Shown piece after piece: positions 8,568 through 17,865 of a stretch of 56,403 bases of DNA; position 1 is the first letter of the stretch, and every line of letters starts with the position of its first letter. A model generated the notes under the pieces. It ran no database searches and was not told where the DNA came from. It saw only the letters and a list, made by a program, of their open reading frames with translations. Source of the DNA: Bdellovibrionota bacterium (GTDB taxonomy: Bacteria; Bdellovibrionota_C; UBA2361; JBGSMV01); contig JBGSMV010000044.1 of NCBI GenBank assembly GCA_041739995.1, positions 1 through 56,403 on the forward strand, in the 5' to 3' direction. The position numbers and the translations under genes were made by a program.

Positions 8568-9590
8568 TCAATTCGGGAAGAAGGCTGCAATCACTTCCGG
8601 CTCTAGCGGCAATTCCTGCGCCCTGGCCTGCTGCACGAGGGTCCATAGCAGTCGGTATGACGCACGGTCATGCAGAGTATCTTGGTGCCGAATGGGACCC
8701 CACGACGCTTCATGCCCCTGAAGAAGTACTGCCTGAGCGAGTGCGAGACTTTCAAAGTCAGGGGCGAAGGCACGTACGATCGGGGCAATTTGGTCGGGGT
8801 GAATACTCCACATACGCTGAAAGCCGAAGCTGGTGTAGGCGCGCCGCGCGTCGGCGAAGACGACTTCCATTGAACGAACATCGACACAGATGTTGTGACT
8901 AGCAACTTTGCCCGAGCGACAGGCCGCTTGAACGAGCGCTACCTTTGCAGCTACCAGCAAATGATGCTCGAACTGCAAAGGAGAGCGCATGGCGTCTGCG
9001 GGGATAATTCCCGCATGCTCACTGATAAAGTCCAGCAAACCAAAGTCGAGCACCTCAACGCTTGGATGCTCCGCGATTTCGCCGACGAGGTGCAGCGCGG
9101 AGGGGGTTTCGATCAGGACGTGCAGCGGCATGGGCGTGTCGCGCCCTGCTTGTCGACAGTGCCAATCCACCGCACGAGCGACGCGGTGTAGGTCTTCTAG
9201 GCGGCGCAGTTTAGGGACGGTGATATAGGAGAGAGCCTTTGCAGCGATGGGCATTGCCACCTGGAGATCTTTTTCCCATTGGGAGGACTCGGCATCGTGG
9301 ATTCTAAGTCCTAAAGCGGCTCGTTTGGGCGCCCCTGAGCGACGTAGTAGGTCGCTGGCACGATCTGAGAGGATTTCGGCCATGCGCTTGGCGTGAGCCT
9401 GCTCGTTGCCAATCGCCGCACCGTCTTCCAGGTCGGCGGTTACATCAAAAGTGTAGGTGCCTGCATCTTGTATAGAGAAGGCCTTTTCTAAAAAACGCTC
9501 GGAACCGGCAAAGTGTTCGCAGGCAGGTAGAAACACTCGCCTCGGGCTCCCTGGATTTAGTGTGAGGCTAGGATGCATTTTATTCGTCAC
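8568..9590 (-). CDS. HpcH/HpaI aldolase / CitE-like CoA-ester lyase
   Basis: DLEDGA, LRI, VPK, LIETP, LDFGLLDF and WSIHPDQI motifs of the CitE superfamily. Confidence 0.9.
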   Translation of the reverse strand: MTNKMHPSLTLNPGSPRRVFLPACEHFAGSERFLEKAFSIQDAGTYTFDVTADLEDGAAIGNEQAHAKRMAEILSDRASDLLRRSGAPKRAALGLRIHDAESSQWEKDLQVAMPIAAKALSYITVPKLRRLEDLHRVARAVDWHCRQAGRDTPMPLHVLIETPSALHLVGEIAEHPSVEVLDFGLLDFISEHAGIIPADAMRSPLQFEHHLLVAAKVALVQAACRSGKVASHNICVDVRSMEVVFADARRAYTSFGFQRMWSIHPDQIAPIVRAFAPDFESLALAQAVLLQGHEASWGPIRHQDTLHDRASYRLLWTLVQQARAQELPLEPEVIAAFFPN

Positions 9591-9692
9591 AGTATCGCCC
9601 AGATACTTCAGATCTGCGTCAAAGCGAAAGCCTCAGAACGACAAAAATCTGTTCTTTTGTTGGGTTGCCTCACTTGTAGTCGAGATGAGAGG

Positions 9693-11648
9693 ATGTTTCA
9701 AAGTGCCCCTAGACTGACTAGTCCAGCCATGATTTCACAACGTTTATATCGTTTCGTTCCTCGCTCAGCTCTGCGCCTTTTTTTGGTTGCGGTGCTCTGC
9801 GCTGGCATATTCGCCTCTGGACGCAACGTTCTCGCTGAACCCGAGGCTATAGAGCCGGATGAGGTGTTGCCCAACGCGGTAGAGCGTGGAATTGATTCGC
9901 TCGATGGGGACGATTCAGTTCTCATTGACCCGAATGGTATCGTGGCCAACGCGGAACCAGAAACGCATGAGCATGCTTCTGAATCGCGATTTCCGGAGGC
10001 TGAAGGAAAAACGATTCGATCGATTGATATTCGGGTGTTCGACGTTTTTGAGGATCCTGACCTCGCCATTTATCGAGCCGCCAATTCACTGAAGGTGAAT
10101 ACTAAGCGAGAGGTGGTGAGTCGCGAGCTGCTCCTTGTAGACGGAGATCCGTACAGGGATTTCCTTGCGATGGAGAGTGAGCGCAGGCTGAGAAACCTTA
10201 GATATCTGCGTAAAGTCAGCATCAGCCCGGTTATTGATGGGGACTTCGTAGATATCATCGTGTCGGTTCAGGATGTGTGGACTCTCCTCCCGCAATTTAG
10301 TTTTAACTCATCCGCTGGGCGTCAAACAATTTCTGGCGCTTTGGTTGAGACCAATTTTATGGGGCTTGGGAAGCGCATAGAGGTAGGTTACGAGAGCGAT
10401 GATTCTCGCGAGATATTACAGACGGTTTATGACGACAACCGACTCTTTGGTTCTCCTCTCCGTTTTGTTGGCGCACTGTTTCAGAGAAACGACGGACACG
10501 AAGGTGTCGTTTACCTCGGCCTCCCCTTTCGCTCATTGGTCGACCCCAAGTCCTGGTACGTTTCGTCTCGCATCTCCGACACGATCGGTCGTTTGTTTGA
10601 AAACGGGGACGAGGAATACATTTTTCGTCAAAACAACGATGACGTTGAAGCGCGCCACACCTGGGCCACGGGAGATCCTGAGCACGACCTCGATCGAAAA
10701 GGTTTAGGCTACCGCTATCAGAAGGACTATTTCGATGTCGCAAGCCTTCAGGACTATCAAGATCTAGATCTTGACCCGAGCGAAGTGAGCAACGATCCGG
10801 CCCGACTACCTGAGAATCGTACCTTTTCCGGGCCGGTATTTGCCTATGAGCATATTGAGCCGCAATTTATCTCCATGAACTATATCGATCGGTTCGAGCG
10901 GGTCGAGGATTTTAACCTTGGTGACCGTTACGATTTTAGTCTCATGCTCTCGCCCGAGTTCCTTGGTAGTCGTCTAAACACGGTGCTGATCTCGCTCAAT
11001 CGAAGTCTGGGGCATCGGTTTAGCGCGGGGTCCTTCCTTCGTGGAGAGGTGGGCTTTGCGTCGCGTTATGAGGAGGATGACTTCCAGAATACGCTGAGTC
11101 GATTCGAGCTGAAGTACTTTAGGGTGCTCGGCGACACGTATATCGGGGACACGTTTCTGGGCAAGCACACCCTCGCCGCCTCCTATTTCCTTGATTACGG
11201 CGCTGAGCTCGACGGTGACCGGCAGTTCACTTTGGGCGGTGACAATGCACTTAGAGGATATAAGGCGCGTGCCTTCGTGGGCGACAAGCGCATGGCGCTA
11301 AATCTCGAAGATCGCGTGCATCTTATGGATGATGTGTTTCGAATCATGAGCGTCGGGGCCGCAGCATTTGCGGATGTGGGCGGCGCCACTTACAGCGGAC
11401 TTGAGCAAATAGTAACTGAAGACCTGTACGGCGACGTGGGGATTGGGCTCCGGTTGGGCTTTCCGCGGTCGAGCGGTGGCGGTGTGGTACGCATTGATTT
11501 TGCCGTTCCATTCCGTGAAGCAGGCGATGGAACAAATGCTTACGAGGTTCGGGTAGTGTTCGCAGCAGGACAGCTCTTCAATTCCAAGCTGCGCAGCGAG
11601 AGCCTGGGCCCTGAAAAAGCCAATATCGAGATTGGAACCGATCATTAG
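9693..11648 (+). CDS. Omp85/BamA-TamA family outer-membrane protein (POTRA plus beta-barrel)
   Basis: Signal-like N-terminus, POTRA-like segment (T...V..RELL...GD......ESERRLR), ETNFMGLGK, LRGY, FADVG, VGIGLR, RIDFAVP. Start uncertain (9573/9693/9729). Confidence 0.88.
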   Translation: MFQSAPRLTSPAMISQRLYRFVPRSALRLFLVAVLCAGIFASGRNVLAEPEAIEPDEVLPNAVERGIDSLDGDDSVLIDPNGIVANAEPETHEHASESRFPEAEGKTIRSIDIRVFDVFEDPDLAIYRAANSLKVNTKREVVSRELLLVDGDPYRDFLAMESERRLRNLRYLRKVSISPVIDGDFVDIIVSVQDVWTLLPQFSFNSSAGRQTISGALVETNFMGLGKRIEVGYESDDSREILQTVYDDNRLFGSPLRFVGALFQRNDGHEGVVYLGLPFRSLVDPKSWYVSSRISDTIGRLFENGDEEYIFRQNNDDVEARHTWATGDPEHDLDRKGLGYRYQKDYFDVASLQDYQDLDLDPSEVSNDPARLPENRTFSGPVFAYEHIEPQFISMNYIDRFERVEDFNLGDRYDFSLMLSPEFLGSRLNTVLISLNRSLGHRFSAGSFLRGEVGFASRYEEDDFQNTLSRFELKYFRVLGDTYIGDTFLGKHTLAASYFLDYGAELDGDRQFTLGGDNALRGYKARAFVGDKRMALNLEDRVHLMDDVFRIMSVGAAAFADVGGATYSGLEQIVTEDLYGDVGIGLRLGFPRSSGGGVVRIDFAVPFREAGDGTNAYEVRVVFAAGQLFNSKLRSESLGPEKANIEIGTDH

Positions 11649-11860
11649 GCCCTTGGTTACTCCTTCTTAAATCAAAAATAAAACAAAGTTCTCTGTTCGC
11701 TTGCGCGTGGTTCGATCTCAGATGAGCGGCGACTATAGTTGTACGATCTACAGTGGGAGAAAGCGGAACTGTGGAGTACTTGGAGAACTAAGACTTGAAG
11801 GGATGTTGCGGCATGAACACTCGGGGTTCTGTGCTGTCATGGCAGTTTGAATGCTGCACC

Positions 11861-11886
11861 CAAAGAAAAAACGCCACATGTGGCGC
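11861..11886 (-). terminator. Rho-independent terminator closing the basic-microprotein unit
   Basis: Minus strand CGCCA-CATG-TGGCG hairpin followed by TTTTTTCTTT. Confidence 0.75.
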
Positions 11887-11924
11887 TTGATATCGTAGTC
11901 TTTCTAATTACTTAGAAGCTGTAC

Positions 11925-12100
11925 CGCATGACTACCTTACCGCTGAGTTACCAAACTGCGTAGCGACGATGAGGTAGCCATGCTGCACCGGTTTCTGCGC
12001 GAGGCTAAAATCAAAAGACGCCGAATCAAGAGACACTGAGTCAAAAGATACAGAGTCAAAAAAGACAGGGTCAAAAGACCTCGCCTCGGCAGAAACCTCA
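11925..12100 (-). ncRNA. Structured 3' trailer / candidate ncRNA downstream of the basic microprotein
   Basis: Stem 12083-12097 pairs with 11990-12005 (15 bp, one bulge) and encloses a repeat array. A second 12-bp stem GCATGGCTACCT/AGGTAGTCATGC needs a G-U pair that works only on the minus strand. Confidence 0.45.
12011..12080. repeat. Five degenerate tandem copies of a 15-bp unit (core TCAAAAGAC)
   Basis: TCAA cores start at 12011, 12026, 12041, 12056 and 12071, an exact 15-bp period. Confidence 0.9.
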
Positions 12101-12110
12101 AAACAACAGC

Positions 12111-12206
12111 TTACTTCTTACGGCGAGCTGGAGCTTTCTTTGCAGTCGTCTTCTTTGCAGGTGAACGACGGGTGGTCTTCTTTGTAGCTTTCTTCTTAGC
12201 AGCCAT
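12111..12206 (-). CDS. 31-aa Lys/Arg/Ala-rich histone-H1-like microprotein
   Basis: Not in the ORF track. MAAKKKATKKTTRRSPAKKTTAKKAPARRKK*. AGGAG RBS upstream. 15 of 31 residues are K/R, none acidic. Confidence 0.85.
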   Translation of the reverse strand: MAAKKKATKKTTRRSPAKKTTAKKAPARRKK

Positions 12207-12435
12207 TTTCTTTCTCCTGTACCGCACTGCCTTGTCGATTCTGTGACTGCCAATCCCGAGAGCCAACCTCAAGGGTTAGTCTCAGAATCAAAGCGAGCCT
12301 TCAAAAACTCACAAAGTCAATGCAATTACAAATGCAGTGTGGCTCAATGCCGAAGCCTCATTGCCCCGATATTAAACCCACTATTTGTTATCAGATTCCG
12401 CAATCGCCTCAGAGAATCCTCGCTTTGACCGGTGA
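12207..12435 (-). promoter_or_regulatory. Long structured 5' leader of the basic microprotein
   Basis: Perfect 10-bp inverted repeat 12419-12428 / 12288-12297 closes a multibranch domain containing a cUUCGg tetraloop. Alternative hairpins at 12237-12289. Confidence 0.55.
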
Positions 12436-12441
12436 CGAATG

Positions 12442-12469
12442 AGTTAAAGCCCCCACTCGCACATGTCAA
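12442..12469 (-). promoter_or_regulatory. Sigma70-type promoter
   Basis: Minus strand TTGACA-N16-TTAACT, immediately upstream of the structured leader. Confidence 0.6.
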
Positions 12470-12856
12470 AAACAAGCAAAAACCTCGGTTTTTACGGGTT
12501 CTTTCGTCGATACCGCATGACGAAAGAACTCAGCTTAAGCACCATTCAAATCTAAACAGTGCTTATCTCGAACGCATCAGCGAAACGAGCGGCGCATGAC
12601 AAAGTCTCTCCAAAGACAAAGCCAATGTGGCCAAGTCAGTAAGGAACTCATCAAGCAATCCACAAGTGTTGCTCGCGGAGCGCTGGCATTTATGAAATTC
12701 ATAAATGCTGTTCCACAGAGTGCCACTGGATTCTGGAGTTGGCAAGAATAATTCTTACATTGCTATTGCGCTGTGACATCGGATCGGATCCCGACACATT
12801 GGCGGGGTCGAAGCATGCATCGTGTGACTTCGATGCAATGGGAAGCGTCGATTACT

Positions 12857-14104
12857 CTAGTCGAGCTTGCACCACTGTCCCTGTGTAATGATCGCACGCT
12901 CTCCCCCGTCATGAAGTGTAGCAATTACATTAACTTGCTCGGACGAGATCATCATGTCGGTATGCACCGAACTCTCGTTGCATCCAAGTTCACGGAGTTC
13001 GTCCGCCGTAAGTGACTCAGAATCTCTGATGCAAAACTTATAGGCGGAGCCGACAGCAATGTGACATGCAGCATTCTCATCAAAAAGAATCTCCTCAAAC
13101 ACCAGCCCGCTTTGAAACACCGGGGAGTCGATGCCTACCAGGGCAACTTCCCCGAGGCGCCGACCTCCTTCGTCACTGTCAATGTAGGTTCCGAATGTCT
13201 TGCCACCCTCGTCAGCAGTGAAGTCGGCAATGAGACCGTTCTCAAATGTAAGAGATAGCCCTTTGACTAGGGCGCCATTAATGAAGAATGGCCTGGTGGT
13301 GCGAACTTTCCCCGATGTTTTGCGCCAGTCCGGGGTGGTGAAACACTCTTCGGTAGGTAAGTTGGGCTCGAACTCAGCACCATGCGGGCCACGGTCACTT
13401 CCGCCTTTAAATACCGCCCTTTTCGACAAGCCAACGCTAAGTTCAGTGCCCGGACCGATGAACCTTAAGGACTCGATTCCCATGTTGGTGAGTGTTCGCG
13501 CCCGCATTTGAAGATGTTCGTTGTGCAGTCTCCATGCCTCTAAAAACCCTGGTTGGTCTACTCGACAGATTTTAAAAATCTGATCCCAAAGGAGCTCTTT
13601 GGCTTGCTCAGGATTCGATTTTGGGAAGACTCTCTGTGCCCAGGCCGGTGTTGCGCCCGCGGCGACAGTCCAATGGACGAGGGATTTGTCGATGCCCTGG
13701 TCGTAAAATGATTTTACGCGATTGTACTGGGCGATGCGCCCGGCATTAATCAGCGCGGGGTCAAGACCGTGCATGAGTGCGGGGTCTTCGGGCCCTACTA
13801 TCTTTAGGTTGGCTCCGCGCTCATCTACGAGCTCTTGGTACTTCATCGCCAGGAAAGGAGGAGCATACCCCATTTGCTCCATGGAGGAGTGCTGGACTCG
13901 AAGTCTTGCCAGACGAGGTTCAGCAAGATCGATAGCCACATACCGTGCGCCGTGCGTATAGGCAGCCTTGGCCACCCTATAGGCGAGATCTCTGTGGACC
14001 ACCTCGGCAGAGATGTTGACTATCTGTCCTGGTTGTACATTAAGCCCGTGAGCCACGATGAGCTCAGCGTATCGATCGAGAAGGATGTCGAATGTTTCTG
14101 CCAT
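12857..14104 (-). CDS. M29 family aminopeptidase (AmpS/PepS type)
   Basis: GLNVQPGQ, PNLPTEECFTTP, LGEVALV, LFDENAACHIAVGSAY, NESSVHTDMM. Start set at ATG 14104 (MAETF); the track ORF extends to 14287. Confidence 0.95.
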   Translation of the reverse strand: MAETFDILLDRYAELIVAHGLNVQPGQIVNISAEVVHRDLAYRVAKAAYTHGARYVAIDLAEPRLARLRVQHSSMEQMGYAPPFLAMKYQELVDERGANLKIVGPEDPALMHGLDPALINAGRIAQYNRVKSFYDQGIDKSLVHWTVAAGATPAWAQRVFPKSNPEQAKELLWDQIFKICRVDQPGFLEAWRLHNEHLQMRARTLTNMGIESLRFIGPGTELSVGLSKRAVFKGGSDRGPHGAEFEPNLPTEECFTTPDWRKTSGKVRTTRPFFINGALVKGLSLTFENGLIADFTADEGGKTFGTYIDSDEGGRRLGEVALVGIDSPVFQSGLVFEEILFDENAACHIAVGSAYKFCIRDSESLTADELRELGCNESSVHTDMMISSEQVNVIATLHDGGERAIITQGQWCKLD

Positions 14105-14340
14105 ACTGATGTTTGTAGCGTGCCCGTGGAGGGTGCGAAAGGTCCTCCACCCTTGTCTCGGCCTCTCATCAATCTGGTCCCTTGCAGTACGTGCGGCCAG
14201 CTTGCTCTCGTTTGCGAGGGTACACGGCGCCCTGATTCCTTGCTTGAGGTCGCTAATTTGATGCGGTGCGGTCAGTAGCGAGTACATTTAGCGAGAGAAC
14301 GCCTTTGCTTATGGGTGAGCCCGATTCAGCCTATAAAGGC

Positions 14341-16719
14341 CTATCGTCGCATTCGCAGGCGCTGCGAGATGGACGAGCACAAGGTCTCAAATCTCTTCTG
14401 ATTCAATGCACGACGCGAGACTCCTGAGCTGCGTGGGTTTGCAATTCGACGCTTGCCGGTGGCCCCAGCGACAGAAACTGCCAGCTCCCTTACCCGAAAC
14501 GAAGCAAAACGTGATGAGAGACGCCCGCGCAGGGTGGCGGTGTGTCCGGGAACGATGGTTACCTGGGGTGCCGCGGCGCACAGCTGGCCATCGAGCCGTA
14601 GGGACGCAACCGCTGAGCCCGTGCCGCTGAAGTCCGATGGGCGAATCTTTATCGCGATGCGTTCTCCAGGAGTCAGTACCTTTTGCTTTGAGCCCGAGGA
14701 AGAGAGTCCCCATACTCGTACTGAATCCACTTTGAGGCTTCCGTCCGGAGCGCCACCGCCCGAACCGCACAGAGGGACGTATTGCAACGCCAGACCGTCT
14801 GTGGCTTTACGATCATTGAACGAGTAAGTCGCGAGACTCTGTTCTGTCCTGCCTTGAATCCCTACGGTCACATTAGCCTTGATGATGTTTTCAATGGCGC
14901 CGCTAGAGTACGACACCCACTGCTTCGCCGTACCGTCGGCATACAGGGTCAGACGAGCCTCTACATGTCCAAGACCTGGGTTGGTGTAAAGCGAGCTGTT
15001 CCAATAGAAGGTTGCTTGTTCCGAGGAGAGCTGCACCCTTACGCTCGACACCAAGTCGGTATGCAGTACCGCAATCGAACGGACGGGAGCTTTAGACGAG
15101 TTCTGCCAATCCATGCTCGAAGGTGCTGCCCCAAAGTACAGTACGCCATTTGGGGAAACCACTACGCTTTGCATAGCAACGCCATCGAACGTGAAGGGAA
15201 ACGGCAAGGAGACTGTTTTGAAGTTGAATTCGTCGACCCGTTCCATCAATAGAATGCCCGAGTCCGCAGACCGGTCTATCGCGTCTCCTTGTTGCGCGAT
15301 TCCATAAGGACAAGGAGCTGGAGCCGGGGCATCCGGAGGAAGAGGTACGGCGTCATTGGCTAGCAGTCGTCCGACGTTCAGGGCGCGCGCAGTTCGTACG
15401 ACTCCTTGTAGAGTTCCGAACGAGACGCCCGTGTCATAGAGGCGCTGAATTGCTTGACTCGCACTCAGCGCTGGTTCATAGGCGAGTAGCAGTGCCAAGG
15501 CTCCCGCTACATGCGGGGTTGCCATGGAGGTTCCCGAATAGCTGGCGTAACCGCCGCCGGGGACCGTGCTCAAGATACCTACGCCAGGAGCCGCGATGTC
15601 CACCGTAGAAGCGCCGTAGTTCGAGAAGCTTGCGAGGTTACGTTGACGATCGGTAGCCGCTACAGAGACGAGCGTTGAAGCTTCGTAATTAGCCGGATAA
15701 GAACCTGAGTGGTCATTATCATTGCTCTCATTGCCCGCAGCAGCCACGAAGATGATGCCCTCACTGGCTGCGCGGTCGATGGCTTCCTTAAGCGCTTGTG
15801 AAAACCCAGGACCACCCCATGAGTTATTTGAAACGCGAATGTTTACCCCGCGGCGCTTCATCATCACCATGTAATCAATTGCACGAATCGCTCCGGCTAT
15901 GCTGCCCGAACCGTTTGAACTAAGGAATTTAAGTCCCATGATTCGAACGTCCCAGTTTACCCCCACTACGCCGTTTGCATTGTTACCGCGTGCCCCGATG
16001 GTTCCGGACACGTGGGTGCCATGGCTATTGTCGTCCATGGGGTTTCCGCTGTTGGTGATGGCGTTATAGCCATGCACGTCGTCGATGACGCCATTGCCGT
16101 CGTCGTCAATATTGTTATTTGGAATTTCGCCAGGGTTAACCCAGGCATTTGCGGCAAGGTCAGGGTGAGTGTAGTCGAGCCCGGTATCAACTACGGCTAC
16201 TACCACTTGAGATGAGCCAGTGTGGCGGTCCCAGGCACGCGGCGCGTCAATACCGGCAGAATCAATCAGGCCCCATAGTTCGCCAAGGCGAGGGTCATTG
16301 GGTGTGGTGGCAAAGTGAGATACGAGCTGATTCTGTTCGCAGGCAGCGGCCACACCGCTGGTGATTAGGGACTGACAGACCCGGTCTGAGTCATCATAGG
16401 GAGCTGACGCTTGGGCGAGAGTGACCATGCCCGCGTCGGGAGTAACCAAAAGCTTGGACCCGTTCGACAGTGGAGCTTTTACGGTTAGGCCGTGCGGTGC
16501 CAAGAAGTGATTGGCCACGTCGCCTGCACCGGCAGTGCTCGCCGCTATCGCCGGAGTGATAATGTACTCATTGGGAACGACCAGGCGCTGGGCGTTCGCT
16601 TCCGCAGCAATACTTGAGGCAAGCACAAGACAGGCGAGCGTGGCAAACAGGAAAGGCTGGATTTTAGATAGGCCACACCTAGCGAAGAATTTTCCAAGCT
16701 CTAGAACGCTTCTTTGCAT
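14341..16719 (-). CDS. Secreted S8 (subtilisin-like) serine protease with C-terminal extension
   Basis: Catalytic triad VVDTG, HGTHVSG, GTSMATPHV. Oxyanion AAAGNE. Signal peptide. GGGGAG RBS upstream of ATG 16719. Confidence 0.96.
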   Translation of the reverse strand: MQRSVLELGKFFARCGLSKIQPFLFATLACLVLASSIAAEANAQRLVVPNEYIITPAIAASTAGAGDVANHFLAPHGLTVKAPLSNGSKLLVTPDAGMVTLAQASAPYDDSDRVCQSLITSGVAAACEQNQLVSHFATTPNDPRLGELWGLIDSAGIDAPRAWDRHTGSSQVVVAVVDTGLDYTHPDLAANAWVNPGEIPNNNIDDDGNGVIDDVHGYNAITNSGNPMDDNSHGTHVSGTIGARGNNANGVVGVNWDVRIMGLKFLSSNGSGSIAGAIRAIDYMVMMKRRGVNIRVSNNSWGGPGFSQALKEAIDRAASEGIIFVAAAGNESNDNDHSGSYPANYEASTLVSVAATDRQRNLASFSNYGASTVDIAAPGVGILSTVPGGGYASYSGTSMATPHVAGALALLLAYEPALSASQAIQRLYDTGVSFGTLQGVVRTARALNVGRLLANDAVPLPPDAPAPAPCPYGIAQQGDAIDRSADSGILLMERVDEFNFKTVSLPFPFTFDGVAMQSVVVSPNGVLYFGAAPSSMDWQNSSKAPVRSIAVLHTDLVSSVRVQLSSEQATFYWNSSLYTNPGLGHVEARLTLYADGTAKQWVSYSSGAIENIIKANVTVGIQGRTEQSLATYSFNDRKATDGLALQYVPLCGSGGGAPDGSLKVDSVRVWGLSSSGSKQKVLTPGERIAIKIRPSDFSGTGSAVASLRLDGQLCAAAPQVTIVPGHTATLRGRLSSRFASFRVRELAVSVAGATGKRRIANPRSSGVSRRALNQKRFETLCSSISQRLRMRR

Positions 16720-16950
16720 AACCACCAAACTCCCCTCTGCGAGAAAAACCTGAGAAGAACCTAAGAAAAATCTTAGTGCGCGTGAACAGGCATCAACCGT
16801 CAGGAATAAGTTTCGGGGAGTGGGCGCGAAACCATGATAATTCGGAGCGAAAAAGCCTTAAGCAAAGGCAATAGCTGCCAACTTGCGGATTCGCTGAGGG
16901 AATTTTTTGAGTAATGCGGAGGTTAGCGGCTGCTCAAAGCAGCCACCATG

Positions 16951-17865
16951 CTAGGAAGATTTCGCAGTGAGAAGCTCGGTGTCGAGTTCTCCGCTCTTGA
17001 TAAAGCGGGCCAGATTTTGCGCAAGCAGTCGACAATGTTGATTGACTTGCGCGCTTGGCGCTGCCGGGACCACCTTCGCGGGACTTGCGCCCTGACCAAC
17101 TCGTCCCTGTCCACTTCCTGCCTGTCCAATTCCTGCCTGTCCAATTGAGGCGCTAGGCGCTTGTTTCTGATGCCTTGGGTGTGGCCGAGTAGACACGGTA
17201 AAAACCCAACCGACCTTTCCTGGGGAGCGTCGCACTTCGAACAGAAACGAATCATTGGTGGAAAGCGCATTTGATATCAGTAAGGACTCGTCATTAGTAC
17301 GTGGAAGGCCGGCAGAACGCTGGGGAGACTTAACGGCGCTTCCCTTTGAAGGCGCGGCCTTGGAGGAAGGGCTGAGCTGAGTAGTCCCGCCGTCTGCATA
17401 TAAGGGCTGTGTGCGGTACGAGCTGGTGAACCTTAGGAAGAAAACCTTGGCCCGCTCCCATCCATACGTTGCATCTGGAAAGGAAAGCTCAAAGCTAGTT
17501 GGCTGCGCGGTCACCGCTTTTCGCGCTTCTGCCTCGGAGCTTTCAACTTCTATCACCGTTCCGTCCGCCTTTACGAAGCGGCGCGTGGCGAGACTGGAGT
17601 CATGACTGGATGAAGAATCTGCGCCTAAGAGGTTTGAGCCCAAGGACGCGCGGCTTGAAGAATCCAGATGTGGAGAGTGAGAACTGCTGCTGCAACCAGT
17701 CAAAGCTGCAGACAAAACAGCGCATGCACACATACACAAAAGCGGCCCGGAGGTTCGTCTAAGGAAAGGAGCTCGCGGGTAGCCTAGGAGCGTATGGCCC
17801 AGCTGCAGAGGGCGGTCATAAAACCGCTGCTCGCTACCGTTTCTGCCAAGCAGAGTTACGCGCAT
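16951..17865 (-). CDS. Hypothetical lipoprotein
   Basis: Hydrophobic stretch ending in a LTGC lipobox followed by a Ser run. Low-complexity GQAG repeats near the C-terminus. Confidence 0.65.
   Translation of the reverse strand: MRVTLLGRNGSEQRFYDRPLQLGHTLLGYPRAPFLRRTSGPLLCMCACAVLSAALTGCSSSSHSPHLDSSSRASLGSNLLGADSSSSHDSSLATRRFVKADGTVIEVESSEAEARKAVTAQPTSFELSFPDATYGWERAKVFFLRFTSSYRTQPLYADGGTTQLSPSSKAAPSKGSAVKSPQRSAGLPRTNDESLLISNALSTNDSFLFEVRRSPGKVGWVFTVSTRPHPRHQKQAPSASIGQAGIGQAGSGQGRVGQGASPAKVVPAAPSAQVNQHCRLLAQNLARFIKSGELDTELLTAKSS

Follow-up and report, generated by a model that had tools for sequence, protein, structure and literature searches.

A gap without an annotated gene, in a 56,403-nt stretch of DNA from a Bdellovibrionota bacterium (the whole of which is called the window here), raises three questions: whether it holds a gene for a very small basic peptide, from where this gene is transcribed and what its product does. 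The open reading frame (ORF) in question has 31 codons and lies at 12206-12111 on the minus strand. The gap is flanked by an M29 aminopeptidase gene on the same strand upstream and by a convergent gene of the Omp85 family downstream. The features of the region are the following.

9573-11648, plus strand: Omp85-family protein, convergent downstream neighbour (PF01103; an Omp85-family gene follows in 10 of 57 loci)
11861-11888, minus strand: intrinsic terminator-like hairpin and U-tract (terminator scan)
11890-12110, minus strand: 3' trailer, in which one long hairpin (12097-11990) encloses degenerate 15-nt tandem repeats and is followed by another (folding; genus-specific)
12111-12206, minus strand: ORF of the 31-aa Lys/Ala/Thr/Arg peptide, histone-H1-tail/Hc2-like (ORF call, codon pattern, orthologues)
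12207-12435, minus strand: proximal part of the 5' leader, which has long G.U-rich hairpins and the ribosome-binding site at its end (z -4.08 sense, -1.81 antisense)
12214-12218, minus strand: Shine-Dalgarno AGGAG, 7 nt 5' of the ATG (sequence; matches relatives at the DNA level)
12436-12710, minus strand: distal part of the predicted 5' leader, made up of successive hairpins that begin about 3 nt past the predicted +1 (folding z -4.93 sense, -3.54 antisense)
12442-12469, minus strand: TTGACA-N16-TTAACT, the promoter of a preliminary description (weak, non-conserved; secondary promoter at most)
12717-12760, minus strand: sigma70-type promoter-like motif with A/T-rich upstream element, TTGCCA (12745-12740), 17-bp spacer ending in TGG, and CACTCT (12722-12717) (conservation; predicted +1 about 12710)
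12857-14287, minus strand: M29 aminopeptidase, the commonest syntenic upstream neighbour (PF02073, E 7e-126; 22 of 57 loci)

A conserved gene for a 31-residue basic peptide

Lys and Arg make up 15 of the 31 residues of the peptide, Asp and Glu are absent, and its Lys/Ala/Thr/Arg composition places it in the class of histone H1 tails and Hc2-like proteins. The preliminary description of this locus had already reported the basic peptide, the AGGAG ribosome-binding site (RBS) and an intrinsic terminator; all three were recovered at 12206-12111, 12218-12214 and 11888-11869 (stem, with U-tract), respectively, on the minus strand. The ORF, the RBS, the folding of the RNA and the terminator are real. 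Searches of Pfam, NCBIfam and PDB gave no match to the peptide. The Atlas returned 30 matches, all of them to unnamed clusters (best 0.93) and with a recognition value below the informative level; the nearest named cluster is HC2 (0.86), which is a lead only.

A DNA search of 61 genomes resulted in 20 relatives, almost all of which matched at the RBS and ORF alone; in most matches the RBS and start were the sole part resembling the relatives at the DNA level. A pattern of RBS plus start matched 56 of the 91 genomes of the order, with 3 matches in the reversed control. From these searches 53 distinct K-rich starts were extracted. Forty-three, including that of the window, open ORFs of 21-53 aa that encode no acidic residue, and the remaining 10 belong to longer proteins, some of which are of the HU family and have K-rich N-terminal tails. 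The average composition of 56 orthologues (21-117 aa, most of them 21-34 aa) is 46% K, 23% A and 13.5% T, with D and E at 0.1% each. Their ends are conserved, with MA(A/T)KKK at the N-terminus and a K/R run at the C-terminus.

Thirteen orthologues of 25 aa, picked for equal length from one genus, have 4 variable sites at the first codon position, none at the second and 9 at the third, while there is wide divergence between their leaders. The codon variation thus preserves the peptide, and the RBS, ATG and stop are conserved amid diverging flanks. Among 57 loci an M29 peptidase gene lies upstream in 22, and the convergent gene encodes an M12B reprolysin-like protein in 28 and an Omp85 protein in 10; this convergent orientation of the downstream gene is shared by the window and most of these loci. 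Throughout the order, the peptide gene has kept its place in the chromosome. Peptidase genes (M29, M12B and S8 subtilase) ring the peptide locus. The S8 subtilase gene, two genes upstream of the peptide gene in the window (14341-16728, minus strand), looks by eye like the gene that immediately precedes the peptide gene in loci L077-L079 and L222.

Seven stand-alone peptides were searched for in a catalogue of 15 billion proteins and none was present, whereas 7 of 8 control sequences were found; the control that was missing represents an alternative start of a gene present in the catalogue. The gene is therefore skipped by gene callers. It is a real and widespread stand-alone gene for a peptide that has 31 residues in the window.

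Promoter and extent of the transcript

The preliminary description placed the promoter at TTGACA-N16-TTAACT. The TTGACA is present at 12469-12464, but the proposed -10 element TTAACT has no A at its second position, a promoter scan did not list the pair, and of 31 orthologous leaders, counting that of the window, only 3 contain TTGACA. The conserved motif lies elsewhere: 117-618 nt upstream of the ATG the orthologues share ATCAAA-N7-8-TTGCnA-N14-TG(G/T)-CAnnnT. The earlier promoter is therefore probably wrong, although a second, internal start alongside the motif at 12745-12717 is also conceivable.

The window version of the shared motif, TTGCCA-N14-TGG-CACTCT (12745-12717), has one copy in the 3.8-Mb genome and none in the reversed control; its last 10 bases are identical in L002, a locus of the same genus. 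Across the order the motif gave 67 matches in 54 of 91 genomes, against 37 matches in the reversed control, and 47 of the 67 lie upstream of a peptide gene. This last count is partly circular, as 31 of the matches precede ORFs that were already known. The other 36 served as a blind test: 16 lead to a Lys/Ala/Thr-rich ORF (13 found by script, 3 by inspection), all of them with an ATCAAA-like or A-tract element, and the remaining 20 are within chance level.

The motif has TTG at -35, a 17-bp spacer and a -10 element whose second and sixth positions are A and T. It fits an extended -10 promoter of the sigma70 type in which -12 is C, and we take it as a putative promoter. Several tRNA genes of the same genome have TTGAnn-N17-TAnnnT. 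A sigma54 reading of TTGC..TGGCA was rejected by eye, since compared with the sigma54 consensus the order and spacing of the elements are unfit on either strand. A class-wide promoter pattern with a fixed spacer gave one poor match in 33 genomes outside the order; this is a weak negative, as the pattern also missed the window copy. Looser promoter patterns, counted genome-wide against the reversed sequence, gave no information. A looser copy of the motif at L224 precedes a 116-aa ORF whose product resembles an RRM RNA-binding protein; this copy is either due to chance or marks a second member of the regulon.

The 270 nt between the two promoter candidates (12710-12440) fold with -98 kcal/mol in the sense and -75 kcal/mol in the antisense direction (z -4.93 versus -3.54); this preference for the sense strand is as expected if the segment is transcribed. 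On the basis of this folding and of the conserved motif, the unit of about 575 nt given previously is revised to a predicted unit of about 850 nt with a leader of about 504 nt. The RNA run X5 contains one contig of 196 nt that covers 12175-12370 with 1 difference. Within 11300-13200 there is no cover outside about 12127-12370, and the ends of the flanking genes are uncovered. The same run also holds many contigs from other organisms over the ORF start. The contig is a weak hint of expression, which may reflect DNA carry-over and is neutral between the two promoters.

Long forms and similarity to Hc2-type proteins

The conserved motif precedes ORFs of 21, 25, 31, 39, 63, 72, 80, 87, 117, 159 and 182 aa. 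Relatives at the same chromosomal position have 21 to 159 residues, and those behind the motif up to 182. The range of 150-240 aa is represented in the order by two loci (159 and 182 aa) plus a partly masked frame of 163 aa (L048). The window shares its M29 neighbour with forms of 63, 95 (L019) and 159 aa (L216).

The 182-aa form (L220) reaches 62.4 bits on the HC2 model PF07382 (cut-off 40), and the forms of 80 and 87 aa reach 37.1 and 36.1 bits. Only one of the 7 long forms tested passes this cut-off, and such scores of low-complexity K/A proteins can come from composition alone. The NCBIfam cut-offs were passed by none of 6 long forms, with L220 at 74.3 of 80 and 46.6 of 135. Within 1.8 kb of L220 there is no synteny match, and its tie to the locus is the promoter motif only. 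PF07382 has no match in the whole genome of the window, and by score the window peptide itself is not a member of this family.

A K/A segment like the peptide is also the N-terminal tail of the HU-family proteins L006, L022 and L037, and the SWIB protein L092 carries a similar one. In the genome of the window one of four HU/IHF-family proteins (L253) has such a tail. In genus g11 we observed hypothetical proteins of 110 aa (L058, L063 and L064) with a similar K-rich N-terminal tail and a conserved C-terminal domain, for which Pfam and NCBIfam gave no convincing match; these are possible further candidates for nucleoid proteins.

In this length series the window peptide is one of the short forms of a locus whose long forms resemble Hc2/BpH1. 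Chlamydial Hc2/HctB, Bordetella BpH1 and the Burkholderia H1-like proteins (PF07382, NF038052, NF038053) are likewise stand-alone, K/A-rich proteins without a folded domain. According to PMC2848022, the length of Hc2 varies with the number of repeats, as it does among the relatives of the peptide locus; the orthologues have Lys/Ala-rich short repeats, almost no acidic residues and length polymorphism. The described Hc2-type members in the same source have 149-237 aa, whereas the forms of the peptide locus mostly have 21-34 aa, and the 31-aa window peptide falls far short of the Hc2-type length of about 150-240 aa. Unlike the Hc2-type genes, the peptide gene has a long folded leader and an order-specific promoter motif, and the window peptide matches no model.

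The peptide also resembles in composition the K/A/P-rich tails of AlgP/PhaF and of mycobacterial MDP1/HupB, with the difference that here the tail is a gene of its own without a globular domain. In vitro, DNA is bound by peptides with the KPAA repeat of AlgP (PMC9239181), and the MDP1 tail is required for DNA compaction (PMC5974015). Another small basic peptide, albeit alike by description only, is ScvA of Coxiella. It is described as DNA-binding, and a role in chromatin condensation has been speculated (PMC4766238, PMC13568565). ScvA is tied to a developmental form, while no such link is known for the peptide gene.

Proposed function of the peptide

Positional homology with the Hc2-like long forms, the presence of similar tails on chromatin proteins and the published behaviour of such tails make it probable, in our judgement, that the peptide coats and compacts DNA in the way of histone-H1-tail-like proteins. 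Its gene is likely transcribed from the conserved promoter-like motif about 500 bases upstream. RNA polymerase with sigma70 would start near 12710. The 5'-terminal hairpin and the hairpin-rich untranslated regions (UTRs) would shield the mRNA from nucleases and, with the RBS open, allow abundant synthesis of the peptide. The unfolded peptide, with 15 K/R and no acidic residue, would neutralise phosphate backbones without sequence specificity, and may bridge or condense the nucleoid alongside the HU/IHF proteins of the genome, one of which bears a similar tail in cis. The UTRs would then be mRNA architecture and not a separate conserved non-coding RNA. The H1/Hc2-like binding that was proposed at the outset finds comparative support in the long forms that score on HC2 and in the similar HU and SWIB tails; the window peptide itself hits no model.

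A polycation of this kind would bind RNA, ribosomes or polyphosphate equally well. The peptide could be a ribosome- or RNA-associated protein that sits in an rRNA pocket or acts as a general RNA chaperone, like bTHX, bS22 and eL41, which are small basic ribosomal proteins similar to it in size and charge. The size of most orthologues (21-34 aa), the strong RBS and the conserved N-terminal MA(A/T)KKK and C-terminal K/R run agree with this. However, bTHX, bS22 and eL41 have fixed sequences without repeats and are covered by library models, and the peptide matches none of these, be it in Pfam, NCBIfam or PDB. Moreover an rRNA pocket could hardly tolerate the expansion by repeats from 21 to 182 aa, and the known fusion partners are HU and SWIB domains. 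The genome also has a separate basic ORF of 44 aa (G000:C41:53888, plus strand) that resembles bTHX. We consider a ribosomal role unlikely.

Folding of the leader and trailer

The preliminary description saw the peptide as embedded in structured RNA, and suggested post-transcriptional control of the peptide or, alternatively, a dual-function RNA whose peptide binds its own transcript. The structure was borne out: the segment 12435-11861 has a folding z of -5.05, and 0 of 100 shuffles were as stable. The signal resides in the proximal leader (z -4.08) and the trailer (z -7.02), and the ORF is without it (z +0.75).

The folding extends to the relatives. The last 200 nt of the orthologous leaders have a median z of -3.95, with 39 of 56 at or below -3; the control, 70 of the 363 ORF-free upstream regions of the genome, has a median of -0.43, with 8 of 70 at or below -3. 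The controls may include untranscribed DNA, and about 24 of the orthologues come from one genus. In 44 of 51 loci a helix is predicted to begin no more than 8 nt from the presumed 5' end, a count made without a control. The leaders vary in length from 82 to 583 nt. The distal and proximal leaders of the window have no sequence match to those of orthologues, the same genus included, and across 42 orthologous loci the window UTRs have no alignable sequence (best E 0.17). Leader folding is thus conserved as a property and not as a sequence.

The situation is different within genus g11, where the leaders align and covary. In 23 leaders of this genus two proximal stems, next to the RBS, have two-sided changes in 7 of 14 pairs, and 91.6% of the cells pair; 0 of 500 shuffles reach the covariation score, which is to be read with the structure being derived from the same alignment of related sequences. 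The covariation asked for at the start was therefore found in genus g11, but the UTRs of the window align with no orthologue. Loci of this genus (L003, L007, L043, L045-L049, L056, L057, L071 and others) also have a conserved hairpin near the predicted start (GCTCACTGAC ... GTGAGTGAGC). Together with further invariant leader motifs it is a candidate for a genus-level RNA motif without an Rfam match. No consistently conserved upstream ORFs were found in the leaders.

Rfam 15 gave no match in the window (best E 0.094, far below threshold). Such a scan had been proposed as a check, and it also returned no match in 20 loci of the order and only two tRNAs in 20 other loci. A tRNA/tmRNA search of the window found none.

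The trailer of about 250 nt is folded in both loci of genus g1, in which it is unrelated in sequence, and is absent from most orthologues; the long trailer thus appears to be specific to this genus. In 41 of 43 loci no more than 98 nt separate the stop from the first hairpin with a U-tract; for the window, the call at 47 nt is a false one. Two candidate explanations were rejected: the 15-nt repeats of the trailer are no special signal, since period-15 arrays are the commonest class in the genome (162 arrays), and an origin of the UTRs from REP or MITE elements does not fit their occurrence as a single copy per genome. Genome-wide, tandem duplications as short as 12-16 nt abound, with their peak at period 15 (for example 12011-12070, 17055-17156 and upstream of tRNA-Glu on contig C34), which may reflect a lineage-specific duplication mechanism.

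The region from the Shine-Dalgarno sequence to the ATG has an unpaired probability of 0.65 in orthologues versus 0.39 in controls, with 24 of 56 versus 1 of 80 at 0.7 or above and the window at 0.56. The RBS is thus predicted to be exposed rather than sequestered, an openness that partly reflects A-rich composition.

A dual-function or autoregulated RNA, in which the folded UTRs play a role of their own or the peptide binds its leader and so limits its own synthesis, would account for the conserved folding of leaders across the order, for the invariant motifs and covarying stems beside the RBS in genus g11 and for the long folded trailers of both g1 loci. It also has a precedent in chlamydial HctA, whose translation is controlled by the sRNA IhtA (PMC3469542 and PMC4355289). 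On the other hand, the UTRs are unalignable, the leaders are inconstant in length, terminator-like hairpins come early after the stop in most loci, Rfam knows neither the window nor the 40 related loci apart from the two tRNAs, and the RBS is predicted to be open. On this evidence the dual-function claim was set aside as quite unlikely; a long-lived and well-translated mRNA seems to fit better than a conserved non-coding RNA or a switch, although some post-transcriptional control through the leader is conceivable.

Possible granule binding and coding status

The peptide might instead bind polyphosphate or other polyanion granules, or tether them to DNA, like the tails of AlgP and PhaF. It shares its composition class with the KPAA tail of AlgP, a protein that localises to polyphosphate granules and needs this tail for granule spacing (PMC9239181). 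The peptide has no granule-targeting domain, however, and its neighbours are peptidase and Omp85 genes without any polyphosphate or PHA genes, which makes this very unlikely. That the ORF is an untranslated chance A-rich frame or a lysine-sensing attenuator leader is hardly credible: it is absent from protein catalogues, but its codons vary in a peptide-preserving manner, the RBS, ATG and stop have been retained amid flanks that differ, and with a convergent downstream gene in the window and most loci there is nothing to attenuate.

Occurrence in other phyla

The DNA-compacting peptide favoured above may have counterparts outside the order. A pattern of RBS plus MA(A/T)KKK(A/T)(A/T)KK, which selects for these features and was run without a control pattern, was scanned over GTDB and gave at least 120 stretches with at least 122 ORFs; among the matches listed, 86 have at most 60 aa with D/E at or below 5%. 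According to the titles of the 80 stretches listed with one, these short ORFs occur in Acidobacteriota (down to 13 aa), Alphaproteobacteria, Gemmatimonadota, Dormiibacterota, Eisenbacteria, Bdellovibrionota, Myxococcota, Planctomycetota and Patescibacteria. About 14 other listed ORFs continue by eye into a SWIB domain, which was confirmed for L092. One locus (L107) has the promoter motif of the order and a leader of the g11 type. Across the phyla the similarity may be due to convergence, to which low-complexity sequences are prone, or to common descent. Among the carriers is a cultured bacterium, Vineibacter terrae (L159).

Among the matches listed, 61 loci, nearly all from outside the order, have a median leader z of -1.2. 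Since leaders are weakly folded in other phyla, the peptide does not depend on a long folded leader. The Acidobacteriota loci have TTGAC-N18-CAATAT about 70-115 nt upstream of ORFs of 13-17 aa. In several of them (L086, L131, L132, L138, L160, L163 and others) we observed a near-invariant ORF of 13 aa with a conserved upstream region of about 110 nt and a promoter-like motif TTGACA-N17-CAATAT. Tandem double K-rich ORFs occur in L097 (20 aa plus an open 50 aa) and L099 (22 plus 24 aa). A 24-aa ORF identical to one in L099 (Dormiibacterota) is present in L150, recorded as a Micrarchaeaceae archaeon, which is probably a mis-binned contig.

A more far-reaching view, which we put forward as tentative, is that free histone H1 tails of 13-35 residues are overlooked abundant chromatin proteins in many phyla. 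They would be skipped by gene callers and lost in tryptic proteomics, and would act in trans as detached tails of HU and SWIB proteins; in the order the leader of 100-600 nt might bind the peptide or a regulator and so set its dose.

Significance

Full-text literature searches yielded no paper on this peptide family, its locus or its promoter motif, although supplements of small-protein catalogues may list such peptides. Judged by its relatives, the peptide appears to be a new minimal variant of the bacterial H1-like proteins, whose function we infer. One promoter motif and one neighbourhood link peptides of 21 aa to proteins of the size of Hc2, a connection that sequence search could not provide for low-complexity peptides. 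The motif also finds the peptide gene in unannotated genomes. Synthetic peptides with the lengths that occur in nature (13, 25, 31, 80 and 182 aa) make it possible to test how short an H1-like protein can be. If the peptide is a nucleoid protein, then a widespread class is missing from current inventories of chromatin proteins in bacteria.
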